This document shows, one piece after another, positions 250-7,599 of a stretch of 17,359 nucleotides of DNA. The notes below the pieces were generated by a model that did not search any database, had not been told where the DNA came from, and saw nothing but the letters and a program-made list of their open reading frames with translations. The position numbers and the translations under genes were made by a program. Source of the stretch: an uncultured Dictyoglomota bacterium (GTDB taxonomy: Bacteria; Dictyoglomota; Dictyoglomia; Dictyoglomales; Dictyoglomaceae); NCBI GenBank assembly GCA_964654465.1, contig CAZZIO010000008.1:1-17359 (forward strand). Reading direction: 5' to 3'. Position 1 is the first letter of the stretch. Each line of letters opens with the position of its first letter.

Positions 250-283
250 AAAAAAATAAAAGGGGAGAGAAAGCCTCTCCCCT
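250..283 (-). terminator. Rho-independent terminator of the ABC operon
   Basis: 9-bp stem AGGGGAGAG (261-269) / CTCTCCCCT (275-283), 5-nt loop, followed on the minus strand by TTTATTTTTTT. Overlaps the stop codon of the last ATPase gene. Confidence 0.85.
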
Positions 284-1106
284 ATGCTCTTTTTTCCAGT
301 TCTCCAATATCTTCCCACTTCTTATATAGGGTTGGTATACTTCCAATTAGGTTCTTTGTATAATCGTGTTTTGGAGATGAAATTATTTCATCAGGTGTTC
401 CTTCTTCTACTATTTCACCCTTATACATTATGAAGATTCTATTTGATATATAATAAGCAAGTCCCATATCATGGGTAATAAATATAATAGAAGTTCCTGT
501 TTCATCCCTTAATCTTTCAAATAGCTTTATTATACCACCACGAGTTGATGCATCAATCATGGATACAGGTTCATCAGCTATAATTAATGATGGTCTTAAA
601 ATCCAGCATCTTGCAATCATTATTCTTTGTTTTTCTCCTCCAGAAAGCTGGTGAGGATATTTTCCAAGAATGTTTTTGGGCTCTAAACCTACATTTACTA
701 ATGCTTCTTCGATTAGTTCCTTAGATCTTTCATTTTTGGGATCTATACCTATTAAATTTAAGGCTTGATGTAGTATTCTATCAATAGGATAAAATTGATT
801 ATAACTGGCAAAAGGGTCTTGGAATACTGCATGTACTTTTCTATAATAGTTTTTCTTGTCTTCCACTGTCTTTATATCTTTCCAAACATTTATACCATCC
901 ACAATAATATCTCCAGAGGTTGGTTTTTCAAGCCTTAATATCATCTTTGCAGTAGTAGTTTTACCAGAGCCGCTTTCTCCTACAAGAGATACTATCTCTC
1001 CCTTTTCTACTGTAAAATTAATACCTTTCACTGCATGTATATGTCTTCTTACAAAAAGACCCACTTCATATATTTTATTTAAATTCTTAACTTCTAAAAG
1101 TGCCAT
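282..1106 (-). CDS. Opp/Dpp-family ABC transporter ATP-binding subunit (OppF/BglL-like)
   Basis: Walker A GESGSGKT, signature LSGGEKQR, Walker B IIADEP, H-loop FITHD, C-terminal PKHDYTK motif. Confidence 0.92.
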   Translation of the reverse strand: MALLEVKNLNKIYEVGLFVRRHIHAVKGINFTVEKGEIVSLVGESGSGKTTTAKMILRLEKPTSGDIIVDGINVWKDIKTVEDKKNYYRKVHAVFQDPFASYNQFYPIDRILHQALNLIGIDPKNERSKELIEEALVNVGLEPKNILGKYPHQLSGGEKQRIMIARCWILRPSLIIADEPVSMIDASTRGGIIKLFERLRDETGTSIIFITHDMGLAYYISNRIFIMYKGEIVEEGTPDEIISSPKHDYTKNLIGSIPTLYKKWEDIGELEKRA

Positions 1107-1117
1107 TTTATCTCACC

Positions 1118-2113
1118 TCATTTATTAAATAGAAAACATGCTACTTCTCTATTTGTATCTATCTTTATAAGAGGAGGCTCCTCTTTTTCACATATTGGCA
1201 TCTTATTAGGACATCTGGTATTGAATCTGCAACCCATAGGTGGATTAGCAAGATCTGGGGGTGTACCTGGAATGAAAGATATACCACGTTTCTTTACTTC
1301 TGGCTCTGGAGTTACAACTGACATAAGTAGACCCTTTGTGTAAGGATGTAGAGGTTCTTTTACTATGTCATCAGTAGGGCTATTTTCAACAATTTTTCCT
1401 GCATACATAACCACCATTCTTGTGGCAATCTGTCTTACAGTAGCAATATCATGGGTTATAAATACTATAGACTCTACAATTTCTCTTACTCTTAATTGTT
1501 CAAGGGTTTTCAATACTAATTTTTGATTTGCCACATCAAGGGCGGATGTAGGCTCATCACATATAAGAAGTCTTGGATTTAAGAGAGTAGCAATAGCTAT
1601 TACTGCTCTTTGTCTCATACCACCAGAAAGTTCAAAAGGATATCTATATATATCGTTAGGGCTTATTCCTACATCGGTAAATCTTTGTTTAGCCCTTTCA
1701 ACGATTTCTTCCTCATTTAAGGCTCTTTCAAAATGATCTTTTACCAAGTCAGAGATGAAATCTCTTATTTTTTTTGTTGGCATAAGGGCATTCATTGCTG
1801 ATTGAGGAATAATGGAGGTTTCTCTCCCCCATATAATTTTTTGTAGCTCCTGTCTTGACATATTATTTAGCTCTAAGAAGTTTGCTCCCACATTTAATGT
1901 TACTTTTCCGTCAATAAAAGTTAATGGTTTTTTGATATTCATTATCATAACGTTTGATAGAGTAGATTTTCCAGAACCACTTTCACCTACAATTCCTACT
2001 GTTTCTCCTTTATAAACATTTAATGTTACTCCATCTACTGCCTTTACATAATATTCTCCTCTCGCATAGTATGCTTTTACATTATCTAAGCTTATTATTA
2101 ATGTTCCTTTCAT
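1118..2113 (-). CDS. Opp/Dpp-family ABC transporter ATP-binding subunit (OppD/BglK-like) with C-terminal Cys-rich oligo_HPY domain
   Basis: GESGSGKS, LSGGMRQR, ICDEPT, HPYT and GCRF..RC...C...AC motifs. ATG at 2113 is preferred over the track's GTG at 2122, which is part of the SD GAGGTGA overlapping the upstream stop. Confidence 0.92.
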   Translation of the reverse strand: MKGTLIISLDNVKAYYARGEYYVKAVDGVTLNVYKGETVGIVGESGSGKSTLSNVMIMNIKKPLTFIDGKVTLNVGANFLELNNMSRQELQKIIWGRETSIIPQSAMNALMPTKKIRDFISDLVKDHFERALNEEEIVERAKQRFTDVGISPNDIYRYPFELSGGMRQRAVIAIATLLNPRLLICDEPTSALDVANQKLVLKTLEQLRVREIVESIVFITHDIATVRQIATRMVVMYAGKIVENSPTDDIVKEPLHPYTKGLLMSVVTPEPEVKKRGISFIPGTPPDLANPPMGCRFNTRCPNKMPICEKEEPPLIKIDTNREVACFLFNK

Positions 2114-2118
2114 TTCTA

Positions 2119-2961
2119 TCACCTCTCTCTTAGCTTTGGATTAAATACTTCATCCATTGCTGTGGTTATTATTAGAAGAGAGGAAGTAAGAAGAACTATG
2201 ACAACACCAGGAGGGATAAACCACCACCATAATCCCCTTCTTACTGCTTCCATAAGTACTGCCCATTGTAGTACAACGCCAAGGGTTACTCCCTTTGTTG
2301 GTCCTAAGCCAATTAAACTTAATCCTGCTTCACCTAAAATACCACCATTAATAAAGAGTATAAAAGCCATAAAGGCATAGGTAGCTATTGCAGGAATTAG
2401 GTCTTCAATTGCAAGTCTGAAGTCGCTATATCCAGCAAGTCTTGAAAGATATACATATTCTCTATTTATCAAACTCATAAGTTGAGCTCTAATTGCTCTT
2501 GCAAACCATGGCCATGTAAGAACTCCTAAGATTACTGCTATGACTTCTAAGCTTCTAATTCTTAGGTAACTTGCAATTAATATGGCAAGAAGAATGCTTG
2601 GTATGGTTAGTACAATATTTGTAAAGGACATTAAAAGCTCATCTACTATTCCACCTTTCATTGCTGAGAAGATTCCTACTAATAAACCTATGATCATTGA
2701 GATAATAGCAACTAAGAATCCGATATAGAGTGAAGATCTAGTACCATTTAGAAGTTTAGCTAATAGGTCTCCCCCATAAGTATCTGTTCCTAAGGGATAA
2801 TCTTTACTTGGTGGTTGTTCTGGCATTCCTGCAAAGGAAGTGGGATCTTTGGGATAGACCACTGGTCCTATTAAAGCCATAAGAACTATTAATAGGAATA
2901 TGGTCAATCCAACAATAAATTTGGGATTTTTAAATAAAGGTCTTATCATTTGTTTCCACAT
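2119..2961 (-). CDS. Opp/Dpp-family ABC permease (OppC/BglG-like)
   Basis: PLGTD..G.DL N-terminal motif, about 6 hydrophobic segments, EAA-like loop (REYVYLSRLAG), C-terminal NPKLR. Confidence 0.92.
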   Translation of the reverse strand: MWKQMIRPLFKNPKFIVGLTIFLLIVLMALIGPVVYPKDPTSFAGMPEQPPSKDYPLGTDTYGGDLLAKLLNGTRSSLYIGFLVAIISMIIGLLVGIFSAMKGGIVDELLMSFTNIVLTIPSILLAILIASYLRIRSLEVIAVILGVLTWPWFARAIRAQLMSLINREYVYLSRLAGYSDFRLAIEDLIPAIATYAFMAFILFINGGILGEAGLSLIGLGPTKGVTLGVVLQWAVLMEAVRRGLWWWFIPPGVVIVLLTSSLLIITTAMDEVFNPKLRER

Positions 2962-2962
2962 T

Positions 2963-3994
2963 TTAGCTTCCCTCTCCTTGTCCTAATCTTATTCTTGGAT
3001 CTACAATGGCATAAACAAAATCAACAATAAAGTTGGCTAAATAAACAGCAACTATTAAGATTACAAATATGGCCTGTATTAAGGGGTAATCTAAGGTGCT
3101 CAATGCCCTAAATAGTATATATCCAGTACCGGGATAGTTGAAAATTAACTCTGTAATTAAAGCACCGCCAAGGGCAGAACCTAAGTTTAAAGCAAGACCT
3201 GTTATTTGGGGTAAGAGTATATTTCTGAAAACGTATTTAAAAACTGTGGAATCTCTCATTCCTAAGTTTACAGCAAAAACGGTATAATCTGCATCAAGTT
3301 CATAAATAACAAGAAGTCTTGTACCAATGGCCCATCCCCCTATAGCTGCAATTACTATAGAGAGAAAAGGTAGTATATAGTGATGAAGAACATCTAATAT
3401 AAATTTGATATTTAGACTTGGGATTATTCCTTGAGAATATCCTCCTTGGTTCGGAAATATATTTAGTTTTACTGCAAAAGTATAAATAAGTAACATACCT
3501 AACCAATAGTAAGGTATTTGGCTAATTACAAGAGAAGAATTTAGGACTATATTATCTATCCATGTACCTCTCTTATTTCCGGCTACTGCTCCTAAGGTAT
3601 TTCCAATTATCCAGGCTGTAAGGGTGGCTGGTATAAGTAAAAATAAAGTCCAAGGAATAAAAGGTGCTAATACATCAAGACATTTTTTAGGATAATAATG
3701 AATAGAAGTTCCAAGATTTCCTGTAAAAAGTCTTCCTATGAATCTTAAATATTGTATTATTATAGGTTTGTCTATATCAAATTCTTCCATAAGAGCTTTA
3801 TGTACATTTGATACGGTTTCTGGATTGGCTGCACCCTGTACAGCTATACGTTGAAGAAGGGTGGCAAGAGGATTTCCAGGGATTGCCCTTGGTAGTATGA
3901 AGATTATGGTTATGGCAACGAGATATGTTAGTACTAAGAAGAAAAGCCTTCTTCCTATATATTTTAAGAAAGGTTTTAAGGCTGATTTTGGCAT
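2963..3994 (-). CDS. Opp/Dpp-family ABC permease (OppB/BglF-like)
   Basis: PRAIPGNP, QY..F...LF.G.LG.S, ITELIFNYPG.G, DYPLIQ and C-terminal DPRIR motifs. SD AAGGAGG at 4006-4012. Confidence 0.92.
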   Translation of the reverse strand: MPKSALKPFLKYIGRRLFFLVLTYLVAITIIFILPRAIPGNPLATLLQRIAVQGAANPETVSNVHKALMEEFDIDKPIIIQYLRFIGRLFTGNLGTSIHYYPKKCLDVLAPFIPWTLFLLIPATLTAWIIGNTLGAVAGNKRGTWIDNIVLNSSLVISQIPYYWLGMLLIYTFAVKLNIFPNQGGYSQGIIPSLNIKFILDVLHHYILPFLSIVIAAIGGWAIGTRLLVIYELDADYTVFAVNLGMRDSTVFKYVFRNILLPQITGLALNLGSALGGALITELIFNYPGTGYILFRALSTLDYPLIQAIFVILIVAVYLANFIVDFVYAIVDPRIRLGQGEGS

Positions 3995-4047
3995 TTATTT
4001 ATAAGCCTCCTTTTGTATTGTTGTGTTTACCTATTGCATTTTTTAAT

Positions 4048-4080
4048 CAAAATATACCCCCCGGAATCTAATCCGGGGGG
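4048..4080 (-). terminator. GC-rich intercistronic stem-loop after the binding-protein gene (leaky terminator or 3' stabiliser)
   Basis: CCCCCCGGA (4057-4065) / TCCGGGGGG (4072-4080), 6-nt loop, followed on the minus strand by an imperfect U-tract TATATTTTG. Confidence 0.7.
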
Positions 4081-4103
4081 ATATGTTTCGTTATTAACCT
4101 TTA

Positions 4104-4123
4104 GGACCTTAGAGCATGATCCA
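4104..4123. repeat. Left copy of a 20-bp inverted repeat flanking the binding-protein gene (3' UTR copy)
   Basis: GGACCTTAGAGCATGATCCA is 19/20 identical to the reverse complement of 6013-6032 (GGACCTTAGAGCATGGTCCA). Confidence 0.9.
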
Positions 4124-4141
4124 TTTTGCTTTCCTAAATTA

Positions 4142-5977
4142 TTACTTGGCTTTTGCTTTTGCTAAGGCATTGAGTATATCGTTGGTTGGTATCAAGAGTC
4201 CGCCTTTTGCTTTAAATTCTACCCATGTAGGAACTTTGGGTGTTTGACCTTTTGGTGCAATACCAAAGAGAACAGGAAGTGCATATCCACTCCATGGAGC
4301 AGCTGGGAACCACCATGGTTTTTCTGCATTAGGCCATCCTGTCCATACTGTTTCGTTGTATTCATACCAGTGGGCACCATAGAAGAGAGGTATAGCAGGA
4401 AGGTCTCTGTAAATAATTCTTTGTATCTGGTAGAATAATGTCTTCTTTACTTTTGGATCAAGAGTTGCTGCAATCTTATCTAAGAGTTTTCCTACTTCTG
4501 GATTGTTATATCTTTCAAAGTTACCATATTGATCCTGACCAAATGGCTTATAGAGTGCTGGATCAAGTACTAATCTGTAGACGTTCCATGGATGATCAAA
4601 TCCGGGGCCAGCAGACCATCCAAGTATGAAATCAAATGTTCCTTGTGTCCATCTTGTCCACCATACAGAGAAGTCTGGGAATTCAGTCTTTACATCAAGT
4701 CCGATTGCTCTCATATTTGCTGCCATCATTTCACACATCATCATCCAGTCGGTCCAACCATTTGGAACTTGGATGGTGAAGGTACCCATTCTCTTTCCAT
4801 CTGGGCTAATTCTTATTCCATCTTTTCCTTTCTTGTATCCTGCCTTATCAAGTATCTCGTTTGCTTTCTTAAGATCAGTCTTAGGTTTTCCATCTGGAGA
4901 ACCCCAGTAATATCTTGCATATGCATGATCAATGTATTCATGATATGCTTCAAAGTCATCTATTACCATTGATGGATGGGCTTGGTTACCGTAGCCAAAG
5001 TATGCTTTATCAAGCATTTCTTTGTATGGAATAGCGTAGGCAATAGCTTTTCTTACAGCAGGATCTTTAAGAAGTGGGTTGTAGTAGCTTATGTAGAGTA
5101 AATCAAGTCCATCTGGCATGAAGTATGGTTTATCTTTGAACCATGTACCAATTGGGAGTTTCTTGGTTTTCCAGAGAGAGCTTACATCTGGTATAAATAC
5201 TCCTGCCCAATCAGCATTTCCTTTCTCAAAGTCTAAGTTTGCAACTGCGTTATCTCTATAAATCACGTTGGCAATATATTTTGGTACAGGAAGTCCAAAT
5301 ACAGATTTACCCCACCAATCATCAATCCTTCCGTATACAACGATGTTAGGATCTGTGTAGTAGAGTTTATATGGTCCAGATACTACTTGTTTGGCTGGAT
5401 CATCGTTTTGGAAGTCTTTTACAGCTTGAACGCCTTTCTTTAAAAGTGGTTCATATACGTGTTTAGGAACGATTCTTGTTGTTAATGCATAACCTAAGAA
5501 AGATGCATAGTTTTGAGCATCTGGTCTCATTACAAATTCTACAGTTTTATTATCTACTGCTTTTACAGATTTAATGTAATCCCACCAACCATTACCAGGA
5601 CCAAATCCTACTTCCTTTGTACAATTAAAAGTGAACTCAACATCTTGAGCTGTAATTGGTGTACCATCACTCCATTTTGCAATATCTCTAATCTTTACTC
5701 TTAATGTGGTTTTATTTACTGCTGTGAATGACTCAGCAATAACTGGTAACCATCCGTCTTTCATGTTGCTGTAGATAAAGAGTGGTAAGTACATGAAATG
5801 TTCTGTTCCATAGGTTGCTGAGGGTGCATATAAGCTATAAGTAGTTGCTGACCAAAGAGCTCCAACAGTATATACAGTCTCATTACGTGGTAAAGAAACT
5901 TGACCTAAGGTAGAAGGTACAAACAAAAGTGTTAAAAGTAAAACTGTTAAAAGTACCCCTAAAACCTTACCCCTCAT
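4142..5977 (-). CDS. bglE: Family 5 (OppA-like) solute-binding protein for beta-glucosides/cello-oligosaccharides (T. maritima BglE/TM0031-like)
   Basis: Cleavable signal peptide without lipobox. Mature start QVSLPR..TVY..GALW, KWSDG.PITA.DV, VVSGPYKLYY.DPNIVVY, VP.GWTDWMMMCEM and AHWYEY match my recollection of the Thermotoga cellobiose-binding protein. SD AGGAGG at 5985-5990. Confidence 0.85.
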   Translation of the reverse strand: MRGKVLGVLLTVLLLTLLFVPSTLGQVSLPRNETVYTVGALWSATTYSLYAPSATYGTEHFMYLPLFIYSNMKDGWLPVIAESFTAVNKTTLRVKIRDIAKWSDGTPITAQDVEFTFNCTKEVGFGPGNGWWDYIKSVKAVDNKTVEFVMRPDAQNYASFLGYALTTRIVPKHVYEPLLKKGVQAVKDFQNDDPAKQVVSGPYKLYYTDPNIVVYGRIDDWWGKSVFGLPVPKYIANVIYRDNAVANLDFEKGNADWAGVFIPDVSSLWKTKKLPIGTWFKDKPYFMPDGLDLLYISYYNPLLKDPAVRKAIAYAIPYKEMLDKAYFGYGNQAHPSMVIDDFEAYHEYIDHAYARYYWGSPDGKPKTDLKKANEILDKAGYKKGKDGIRISPDGKRMGTFTIQVPNGWTDWMMMCEMMAANMRAIGLDVKTEFPDFSVWWTRWTQGTFDFILGWSAGPGFDHPWNVYRLVLDPALYKPFGQDQYGNFERYNNPEVGKLLDKIAATLDPKVKKTLFYQIQRIIYRDLPAIPLFYGAHWYEYNETVWTGWPNAEKPWWFPAAPWSGYALPVLFGIAPKGQTPKVPTWVEFKAKGGLLIPTNDILNALAKAKAK

Positions 5978-6012
5978 CTTTACACCTCCTATATTTGGGG
6001 TAAATTAGATCT

Positions 6013-6032
6013 TGGACCATGCTCTAAGGTCC
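6013..6032. repeat. Right copy of the 20-bp inverted repeat (5' UTR copy)
   Basis: TGGACCATGCTCTAAGGTCC, itself a GGACC-N9-GGTCC dyad and the reverse complement of 4104-4123 with one mismatch. Confidence 0.9.
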
Positions 6033-6045
6033 CTTTGTGTTTAAA

Positions 6046-6074
6046 ATAATATCATATAGAAACAATCTTGTAAA
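6046..6074 (-). promoter_or_regulatory. Sigma70 promoter of the ABC operon
   Basis: -35 TTTACA (6074-6069), 17-bp spacer, extended -10 TGaTATTAT (6054-6046). Predicted TSS about 6038-6040. Confidence 0.65.
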
Positions 6075-6079
6075 GGGGG

Positions 6080-6098
6080 TAATTTCATTTTGAAATTA
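6080..6098. promoter_or_regulatory. Palindromic operator candidate upstream of the ABC operon promoter
   Basis: TAATTTCA-TTT-TGAAATTA, perfect 8-bp arms, 5 bp upstream of the -35 box. Confidence 0.6.
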
Positions 6099-6138
6099 TT
6101 AAAAAATTTTAACAAAAATTGTAAGAAAAATACTAAAG

Positions 6139-7599
6139 TTAGAGTTGGGGTACTTCTATGAAATTTATTTTATTTTCTGAAATATACTTTATAAGGAAAT
6201 AAAAAGGATTTTTAGGAATAATACCATTTATATCCTTCCAAAATATAAATATATTAGTACCATGATTAGGTACATTGAAAAAGGCTAGACAAGGCTTTCT
6301 ATCCTTATTTTCCCATATTTCTACTGCTTTATTAATGGCATATCTGCTCATTTCTTGCATAAGATCTACTCCACATCCAACTGGTGGATAATTTTCTATA
6401 TCTACTGGTACTTCTATGAATTCATCATTAAAAGAATGAATTTTATATCCTCTATGAAGATGAACAATTCCTCTTATAGGAGGCATATATTTCCCTTTTT
6501 CATCATATGAATAACCATTTTCTACCTTTTTAATTTTTATCTTTTTATCATGTTCCCATAATGGTATAACAAATTCTTCTGCTTCTACAGAGGGTCCTAA
6601 GGTTTCTTCGCCTTCCTTTTTTATTACTCCAATTCTTCTTTCTTCTATAGGAATGACAAAAGCTATGTCCTTAGAGGTAAGATTACTCTTTATAGTGCCA
6701 TATTTTCCTGAACATGTTACTGCAAAAACACCATTATATATATCAGGCTCATAAGCCATGAAAGCTCCTTCAGCCTGTCTTGAGTAATTGATTAATCTAG
6801 TAATAAATTTATATAATTTTTCGTCTTTTATTAGATTTTTTATCTCTACAGGAGAAGAAAGTAATCCTTTTTCTCCTAAGAATTTTCCAAGTTCAATCAC
6901 ACTATTTAAAACTATTGATTTTTGCCATACTTCTTTTGGAATTTCTATATTTTCTATTTCTTTCCAACCACCCACCTCTTTACATGAACCAAAAACCATA
7001 AGTCTTTTGGCAATTTCATTTAAAGAAAGGGATGGATGTCCTCCTTCTAAGGTTCCTAAGATAATTTTGTTATCTTTTATTTTATTTTCTTTTATCGGAA
7101 CTATTATATTTTTAAAGGCTCCTAATTTTGCCATAAGGAATCTTATAAAAAGCACCTTTGTGGAGGATTTAATATGATGAATGTCTATATTATCTTCCAT
7201 GAATATCATATTTATAAAATTGGGGTGAAGCTCTGGATAAATTTGTAGATTTTCACAAATTTTTTTGCCAATTTTTACAGCTAAGGGTTCTACCTCTGGG
7301 AGTTCCTCTCTTAAAAGGTTTATATCCTCTGTATTATTTTTGAGTACATTTTCTACTTTTTCATTTAGGCTAAGATAAACTGGATTAATTATTACTGCAT
7401 AAGTGGAATTTATTGGTTGATGATATTTATCTTTATCCCAAATAATAACCTCGCAATTTGCTTTTTTAAATTCTTCTTCCAAAATTCTATAAATATAATT
7501 TTTTTGATTTTCTATCTCTATTTTCTTCTCAGGTGTCAAGGGAGAGATAAATGTGATTTCATATATAAGAATAAGATAGGGTTTTTTAAACCACCACAT
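6139..7599 (-). CDS. Hypothetical protein with a C-terminal class II aldolase/adducin-like metal-binding domain
   Basis: Ordered motifs EG(A)F, TCSG..(K)SNLT..DI.FV, PSVE, IVHLH, YPP.GCG..L and VPNHG parallel FucA/AraD/MtnB. The N-terminal ~270 aa are not recognised. SD GGGAG at 7607-7611. Confidence 0.6.
   Translation of the reverse strand: MWWFKKPYLILIYEITFISPLTPEKKIEIENQKNYIYRILEEEFKKANCEVIIWDKDKYHQPINSTYAVIINPVYLSLNEKVENVLKNNTEDINLLREELPEVEPLAVKIGKKICENLQIYPELHPNFINMIFMEDNIDIHHIKSSTKVLFIRFLMAKLGAFKNIIVPIKENKIKDNKIILGTLEGGHPSLSLNEIAKRLMVFGSCKEVGGWKEIENIEIPKEVWQKSIVLNSVIELGKFLGEKGLLSSPVEIKNLIKDEKLYKFITRLINYSRQAEGAFMAYEPDIYNGVFAVTCSGKYGTIKSNLTSKDIAFVIPIEERRIGVIKKEGEETLGPSVEAEEFVIPLWEHDKKIKIKKVENGYSYDEKGKYMPPIRGIVHLHRGYKIHSFNDEFIEVPVDIENYPPVGCGVDLMQEMSRYAINKAVEIWENKDRKPCLAFFNVPNHGTNIFIFWKDINGIIPKNPFYFLIKYISENKINFIEVPQL

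Follow-up and report, generated by a model that had tools for sequence, protein, structure and literature searches.

The sequences that flank rRNAs pair into processing stems, and the type I toxin mRNAs hok and aapA1 fold back from their 5' to their 3' ends; in phage MS2 (coat/replicase), a downstream start is occluded over a long distance by a partner that lies inside a translated gene and is opened by translation, and the repetitive extragenic palindromic (REP) element of malE-malF is a case of an intercistronic stabiliser. Pairing between the untranslated regions (UTRs) at the 5' and 3' ends of one mRNA has also been described. In the available part of the report on hbs of Bacillus subtilis (PMC5737220), a 14-bp helix between the two UTRs modulates the access of RNase Y, and in that on icaR of Staphylococcus aureus (PMC3868564) the 3' UTR base-pairs to the Shine-Dalgarno region of its own gene, blocks initiation and creates an RNase III substrate; a preliminary description of the DNA studied here had named both as precedents. 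Two further reports, likewise available in part, describe long-range anti-Shine-Dalgarno pairing (PMC12697547) and the intercistronic stem-loops that set operon stoichiometry in the selective processing and stabilization of RNA (SRPS), with ATP-binding cassette (ABC) transporters included (PMC8219983). Here we analyse a stretch of 17,359 nucleotides (the window) from an uncultured Dictyoglomota bacterium (assembly GCA_964654465.1, contig CAZZIO010000008.1), which carries on its minus strand an operon of five ABC genes, the binding protein first, followed by two permeases and two ATPases. Two arms flank the binding-protein gene; by sequence, they are predicted to pair on the operon mRNA into an RNA helix of about 21 bp, which would close the binding-protein cistron into a loop of about 1.9 kb.

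Read on the minus (mRNA) strand, the 5' arm (6032-6013) is complementary to the 3' arm (4123-4104) through 19 Watson-Crick pairs and one G-U pair, G6017 with U4119, which is the sole non-Watson-Crick pair inside the 20-nt arms. The next pair outward, G6033-U4103, is also G-U and extends the helix to 21 uninterrupted pairs (19 Watson-Crick and two G-U). The preliminary description had reported the inverted repeat with 19 of 20 positions matched, its single mismatch as a wobble on the mRNA strand and the wobble next to it, and all three are correct. A single gene (5977-4142) lies between the arms. The 5' arm ends 36 nt upstream of its start codon, and the 3' arm follows its stop codon after 18 nt and precedes a hairpin (4080-4057) by 23 nt, the arrangement previously described for the 3' copy. 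The arms are 1890 nt apart, and the helix is thus a long-range structure and not a local hairpin. The Shine-Dalgarno region of the binding-protein gene (5990-5985) stands outside the helix, which leaves the gene's own start site uncovered. From a promoter match, transcription is predicted to start near 6040-6038, 5-7 nt ahead of the helix, in agreement with the earlier prediction of about 6 nt. The leader and post-stop segments of one mRNA are complementary here and able to pair, which is the property that defines 5'/3'-UTR interacting mRNAs. In the window's genus, each arm additionally has self-complementary ends.

Neither the window nor the 1,911,136-base genome contains a third copy of the 20-mer at up to three mismatches, and none of 200 shuffles of the window gave two matches to it at that threshold. 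The arms are therefore not a dispersed repeat of the REP type or a miniature inverted-repeat transposable element (MITE), and the check for genome-wide scatter proposed in the preliminary description returned the two arms alone. Arm length by itself is not exceptional for this genome of 31.6% GC, in which 13 inverted repeats reach 20 nt or more with no more than one mismatch and have their partners within 5 kb; this pair is the only one among them at 50% GC, the rest being at 30% or below. Nor does the pair appear among the 25 longest inverted repeats listed, which are long, of low identity and AT-rich. We also scanned the genome for duplexes on the sense strand between the 150 nt before and the 130 nt after each of 1600 open reading frames (ORFs). 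The duplex between the flanks of the binding-protein gene ranks first, at -65.8 kcal/mol against a mean of -34.7 (standard deviation 8.0), and its uninterrupted helix of 21 ties for the longest. The other 21-nt run, between the flanks of a 246-aa gene (G000, contig C22, 49770-50510), is rich in G-U, reaches -17 kcal/mol and is probably a chance complementarity. No comparable device was found at other genes among the 1600 ORFs, which was the search for similar brackets suggested earlier. Apart from this, a 74-nt inverted repeat with at most one mismatch was noticed at the start of contig C10 of G000 (1-74 and 230-303), which could be the end of a mobile element or an assembly artefact.

The family sample comprised 11 Dictyoglomaceae genomes from three genera, all of which have an orthologue of the binding-protein gene, and further copies were added from metagenome contigs. 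Wherever both flanks of a Dictyoglomaceae orthologue could be read, the arms are still complementary. All eight loci with a promoter-pattern match and both flanks have a duplex between the 5' UTR and the post-stop segment of -37.9 to -50.7 kcal/mol, and L010, a later addition, has a perfect 22-bp helix. Alignment A1 was built from 11 distinct Dictyoglomaceae sequences, and the helix was fixed in it as columns 32-52 with 2002-1982. Standard pairs occupy 215 of its 226 cells (95.1%), compared with 24-50% when the 3' partner is shifted by 1-3 columns, and both sides have changed in 9 of the 21 pairs. This comparison of orthologous UTRs, which had been proposed as a check, therefore did reveal compensatory change. 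An A-U pair became G-C through changes on both sides in L006, and likewise in L010 within the third genus; an A-U pair became U-A between genera, and a C-G pair of the window's genus is U-G in the middle genus and U-A in the third. L006 also lacks one base at the same place in both arms. Pairwise identity is 72.5% in the 5' arm against 41.4% and 40.3% in its flanks, and 74.2% in the 3' arm against 38.9% and 34.9%. Compensatory changes are found within the window's genus as well (L006 versus L003), where the 3' arm is non-coding, indicating that the helix is selected for itself there. We note an in-frame TAG near codon 31 of the binding-protein gene in L010 (genome G008), where the signal peptide ends; the three remaining loci of its genus read CAA or CAG at this point. 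This TAG could reflect a pseudogene, a sequencing error or read-through.

The sister genera reveal what the 3' arm derives from. In both of them the permease starts 26-29 nt past the binding-protein stop with no terminator hairpin in between, and the 3' arm coincides with permease codons 2-8, the N terminus reading M-[R/K]-D-H-[A/T]-L. In the middle genus the predicted duplex extends over the permease start codon and, via a C-rich stretch of the leader, over its Shine-Dalgarno region. For the third genus, comparison of third codon positions in the permease gave 7 differences out of 48 across codons 2-9 and 123 out of 246 across the 41 codons that follow. The five distinct loci of the window's genus have their actual permease start 128-147 nt downstream, with the N terminus M-P-K-[S/T]-A, and there the leader pairs weakly with it (-12 to -21.5 kcal/mol; -12.2 in the window). 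All five also have a 7-codon ORF that starts 12-17 nt past the stop, whose peptide begins M-[D/G]-H-A-L and resembles the permease N terminus of the sister genera; a Shine-Dalgarno-like AGGA or GGAG stands within 16 nt before its start in four of the five. The 3' partner thus lies outside the permease gene, within this small ORF, in the window's genus only, and is permease coding sequence in the sister genera and in the two Thermotogota loci described below (L042 and L043). The stable local stem-loop at 4080-4057, which follows the favoured cistron and is an element separate from the long-range helix, occurs in the window's genus, in those loci whose sequence was read at this point, and in neither sister genus. 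Our reading of this pattern is that the 5' end of the permease was probably duplicated in the window's genus, that the upstream copy was kept for pairing and the working copy drifted out of complementarity, and that the terminator hairpin came to stand between the two. Both sister genera and a Thermotogota lineage have the first permease codons as their 3' arm, and the 5' UTR was therefore originally paired with the start of the next cistron and not with a 3' UTR. The preliminary description had proposed a UTR-UTR clamp; paired arms in the leader and past the stop do exist in the window's genus, but they represent a derived state, the partner in the sister genera being the first codons of the permease.

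Outside the Dictyoglomaceae, an orthologue (E ≤1e-150) is present in 30 of 151 genomes of the Thermotogota, the phylum that holds the genome of L049. For a comparison across both groups we used 38 distinct loci with both flanks, leaving out L013, L041, L045, L078, L052 and L038 (truncated, of doubtful start or containing N), L007, L010, L040, L046, L073 and L079 (a flank missing or no start set), and duplicates. Helix runs of 14-21 occur in 13 of the 38 loci, namely those of the Dictyoglomaceae together with L042 and L043; runs in the other 25 are 8-13, near those of mismatched controls (mean 10.6). No hidden partner was found in the 3.3 kb upstream of these 25 loci, where Watson-Crick runs were at most 11 and runs with G-U at most 17. 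In all helix-bearing loci, the longest run counting G-U stands 46-56 nt before the binding-protein start. L042 and L043 (L049 is identical to the latter) form a helix of 19-20 bp of unrelated, GC-rich sequence between the leader and the permease start codon with codons 2-7, and they differ from each other by one C-G to U-A and one A-U to G-U change. The 5' arm of L042, L043 and L049 lies within a local hairpin of 9 bp in the leader. Four bases are contested between this hairpin and the long-range helix, and the hairpin may be a temporary fold that lasts until the partner is transcribed. A quick, unrooted protein tree of 37 rows (L077 was dropped for an in-frame stop) nests the L042/L043 lineage within a Thermotogota clade, apart from the Dictyoglomaceae, so that the helix must have been gained twice, or gained once and lost at least three times. 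Among the Thermotogota loci inspected by eye (L051, L053-L057, L059, L061, L065, L067, L072 and L076), nearly all have a strong, GC-rich local hairpin between the binding-protein and permease genes, right after the binding-protein stop; L058 has none. In the loci read in this way, the binding-protein gene also follows close behind an upstream gene on the same strand. Positions 3800-6400 of the window gave no match in Rfam 15 at E up to 1.

A transcript of 1996 nt, running from the predicted start through the terminator, was folded thermodynamically, and all 20 of 20 helix pairs were in the minimum-energy fold at 37, 70 and 75 °C. The mean pair probability of the helix was 0.989, 0.975 and 0.968 at these temperatures, and the isolated arms retain -18 kcal/mol at the highest of them. 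RNase III (231.9 bits, cut-off 166.25) is encoded in the genome, as are RNase J and RNase Y, both over their curated cut-offs, which makes the proposed nuclease-related roles possible.

Judging from the sequence, the helix probably helps the cell to make more binding protein than membrane transporter, and we slightly favour a mechanism in which it would separate expression of the binding protein from expression of the membrane components. In the layout taken as ancestral, which is that of the sister genera and of one Thermotogota lineage, the 5' UTR would pair with the first 7-8 codons of the permease and a C-rich stretch of the UTR with its Shine-Dalgarno region, so that initiation at the permease would be held down with the start site of the binding protein left free. 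In the window's genus the permease start would have been duplicated, its upstream copy persisting only as the 3' arm within the 7-codon relic ORF and the new permease start no longer being paired with the 5' UTR. Helix and terminator would there define a transcript for the binding protein only, the 5' end of which, with about 5-7 free nucleotides, would be held in the helix and away from RNase J-type 5' attack, and the hairpin would form a cap at the 3' end. RNase III may cut the helix as an additional step.

An alternative is that the arms act as DNA, either as two sites for one regulator that loops the intervening sequence or as inverted repeats for an invertase or another kind of recombination. 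One arm does adjoin the promoter, and the self-complementary arm ends in the window's genus would suit such an element. However, the imperfect positions are G-U on one strand only. On the sense strand, A1 contains 17 G-U cells and 7 A-C cells; read as antisense, the counts are reversed and 90.7% of cells pair. Six of the seven A-C cells are columns put out of register by a one-base bulge, in L004/L005 and L008/L039 (alignment and RNAduplex, read by hand), and the seventh is the terminal helix pair of L009. A hand count gave at least nine separate G-U events in the Dictyoglomaceae against one terminal A-C, and two further G-U events in L042/L043. Strict, strand-blind trimming, which shortens the bulged helices, yielded 224 Watson-Crick, 5 G-U, 0 A-C and 4 indel columns; the untrimmed whole-flank arm alignment ran into the AT-rich flanks and had mixed mismatch types. 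One-base indels are confined to one arm in L004/L005 and L008, the arms of the third genus are not palindromic, those of L042/L043 keep complementarity in unrelated sequence rather than a motif, and the 17 annotated ORFs of the window include no recombinase or regulator gene. A site that works as DNA would be expected to show neither this G-U bias nor an indel confined to one arm. An element acting as DNA is already disfavoured by these data, and we consider it very improbable. Even less credible is an origin by chance, or as a neutral leftover of duplication without function, given that the helix is kept across three genera with changes on both sides, that the arms are more conserved than their flanks and that the duplex ranks first among the 1600 ORFs, although AT-rich inverted repeats of 20-22 nt do arise by chance in this genome. 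Because of the covariation, the G-U bias and the conservation of the arms above their flanks, we interpret the arms as an RNA helix on the mRNA strand and not as a DNA site, and we are highly confident that this helix is selected. Several points nevertheless weigh against the helix and its proposed role. The comparison draws on only 11 + 2 distinct sequences that fall into few tight groups, so that independent change events are few, and one compensatory example (L010) comes from the locus with an in-frame TAG in the binding-protein frame. By the hand count, the G-U bias has binomial odds of only about 0.003-0.01. Whole-flank duplex energies, which are dominated by flank pairs, gave the mRNA strand no clear advantage: of 13 loci, six are better on the sense strand and one on the antisense strand by more than 2 kcal/mol, and in the other six the strands lie within 2 kcal/mol of each other. 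A 1.9-kb helix must also form despite co-transcriptional folding and ribosome traffic, both of which the thermodynamic fold ignores. The second helix of the relatives, which covers the Shine-Dalgarno region, is not predicted in the window's own sequence. Finally, the helix is missing in 25 of the 38 orthologous loci, and the operon therefore works without it.

Other explanations accept the RNA helix and assign it a different task. It might exist mainly to be cut by RNase III and so to release the binding-protein mRNA from the operon transcript. The near-perfect duplex of about two turns (21 uninterrupted pairs) together with an encoded RNase III is what such a processing stem calls for, and the pairing of the icaR UTRs makes an RNase III substrate in the available part of its report (PMC3868564). 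In the sister genera, cutting would also destroy the permease start. This explanation, which overlaps the differential-expression mechanism and does not exclude it, seems to us possible but rather unlikely as the main purpose. A broader and more speculative proposal is a panhandle around the whole cistron that would tie the leader to the border of the next cistron and at once insulate and stabilise the binding-protein message, bring its stop codon close to its start site so that ribosomes are reused, and silence the permease start, with independent origins in the Dictyoglomaceae and a Thermotogota lineage as an alternative to the intercistronic hairpin; we regard it as doubtful. Slightly more doubtful is a closed-loop mRNA, in which the stop codon would be brought beside the gene's own start and terminating ribosomes would re-initiate on the binding-protein gene, raising its translation independently of any effect on the permease. 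The reading frame lies closely between the arms, with 36 nt separating the 5' arm from the start codon and 18 nt separating the stop from the 3' arm, and the window's genus has preserved the helix even though coverage of the permease start was lost; both would fit a closed loop. It is, however, a purely geometric argument for which no bacterial precedent was found in the open-access literature searched, and it leaves unexplained why the partner is the permease start in other lineages. Differential expression of binding protein and membrane components thus remains the mechanism that we favour.

Table 1. Features of the ABC operon and its long-range helix (window coordinates)
Feature	Position	Strand	Basis or remark
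5' arm of long-range helix, binding-protein 5' UTR	6013..6033	minus	A1 columns 32-52
3' arm of long-range helix, 18 nt past stop	4103..4123	minus	A1 columns 1982-2002
Binding-protein gene, 611 aa, SBP_bac_5	4142..5977	minus	Pfam PF00496, E 3.3e-66
Putative 7-codon mini-ORF (ATG to TAA) containing 3' arm	4101..4124	minus	Probable relic of ancestral permease start
Intercistronic terminator-like hairpin, 9 pairs (8 G-C), then U-rich tail	4057..4080	minus	Sequence
Predicted sigma-70-type promoter TTTACA-17-TATTAT, TG before -10	6046..6074	minus	10/12 match
First permease gene, OppB-like	2963..3994	minus	Start 147 nt past binding-protein stop
Second permease	2119..2961	minus	Rest of operon
First ATPase	1118..2122	minus	Rest of operon
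Second ATPase	282..1106	minus	Rest of operon

The features of the locus are collected in Table 1. The binding protein matches PDB entries 2o7i/3i5o (E 2.4e-231) and 4jsd/4jso (E 1.1e-229). The available part of the structural report (PMC3850815) identifies 4JSD and 4JSO as complexes of Thermotoga maritima tmCBP, and by these matches the binding protein is the predicted orthologue of this cellobiose/laminarin-oligosaccharide binding protein. Matches to tmCBP at E of about 1e-230 make the label 'bglE-like', used in the preliminary description, a sound one. The promoter at 6074-6046 is the best match within 3900-6300 (10 of 12, with an extended -10). Its -10 region is almost invariant across the 11 Dictyoglomaceae orthologues (91% pairwise identity), and the -35 is present in all three genera of the family. 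Just upstream of the -35 (6081-6097, minus strand) stands a perfect 17-bp palindrome, AATTTCA-AAA-TGAAATT. Most loci of the window's genus retain it, some with a single base altered, and the middle genus retains it in part; it is a likely operator at which a sugar-responsive regulator would act. Immediately upstream of the operon and on its strand lies a 486-aa ORF (6139-7599) that has no match in Pfam, NCBIfam or PDB sequences, and ORFs of similar size are found upstream of the operon in loci of the window's genus and the middle genus.

Helices that span kilobases of a bacterial mRNA rarely have comparative support, which here comes from covariation, a strand-specific G-U signature and frozen synonymous sites. 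The distribution of structures suggests a rule by which the mRNA of an ABC operon, where the binding-protein gene ends, would have a hairpin of its own or else a helix that reaches back to the 5' leader. Such operons are known to require more binding protein than membrane components, and either structure would meet this need. In the window's genus, the relic start codon points to a helix that was kept after its original target had moved away, and it separates two functions, the hiding of a start site and the clamping of a message. As an operon for the uptake of beta-glucan oligosaccharides in thermophiles, the system is also relevant to biomass conversion. In the open-access literature we found no description of a leader paired to the start of the second cistron in an ABC operon, and no transcript map of Dictyoglomus.

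The comparison with known systems, taken as far as the available parts of the accounts of hbs, icaR and SRPS operons describe them, brings out both kinship and difference. As in hbs, leader and post-stop segment of one gene pair intramolecularly, and the hbs organism has RNase Y and RNase J, both of which are encoded here; unlike the 14 bp on the short monocistronic hbs mRNA, about 21 bp are formed here across 1.9 kb within an operon, and the partner is the start site of the next cistron or a derivative of it. With icaR the helix shares 5'/3' pairing within one mRNA. However, icaR hides its own start and lowers its own expression, whereas here the binding-protein start is left uncovered, and it is the downstream gene whose site is hidden in the sister genera. 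In common with SRPS operons, a structure stands at the 3' boundary of the first, highly expressed transporter cistron, and the window and most of the Thermotogota loci read do have a local hairpin there; in contrast to such local hairpins, the 3' boundary here pairs with the 5' UTR 1.9 kb away. As in MS2 and in anti-Shine-Dalgarno pairing, a distant upstream sequence pairs in the sister genera with the start region of another cistron, but in contrast to MS2 the partner is an untranslated leader. The stems around rRNAs and the fold-back of hok and aapA1 likewise join sequences that flank a long RNA end to end; those RNAs are non-coding or translationally silent, whereas the helix described here encloses a gene expected to be highly translated. 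What is new in relation to known 5'/3' mRNA pairing is the range of 1.9 kb, the enclosure of a whole translated cistron within an operon, and a partner that is the start of the next cistron or its relic.

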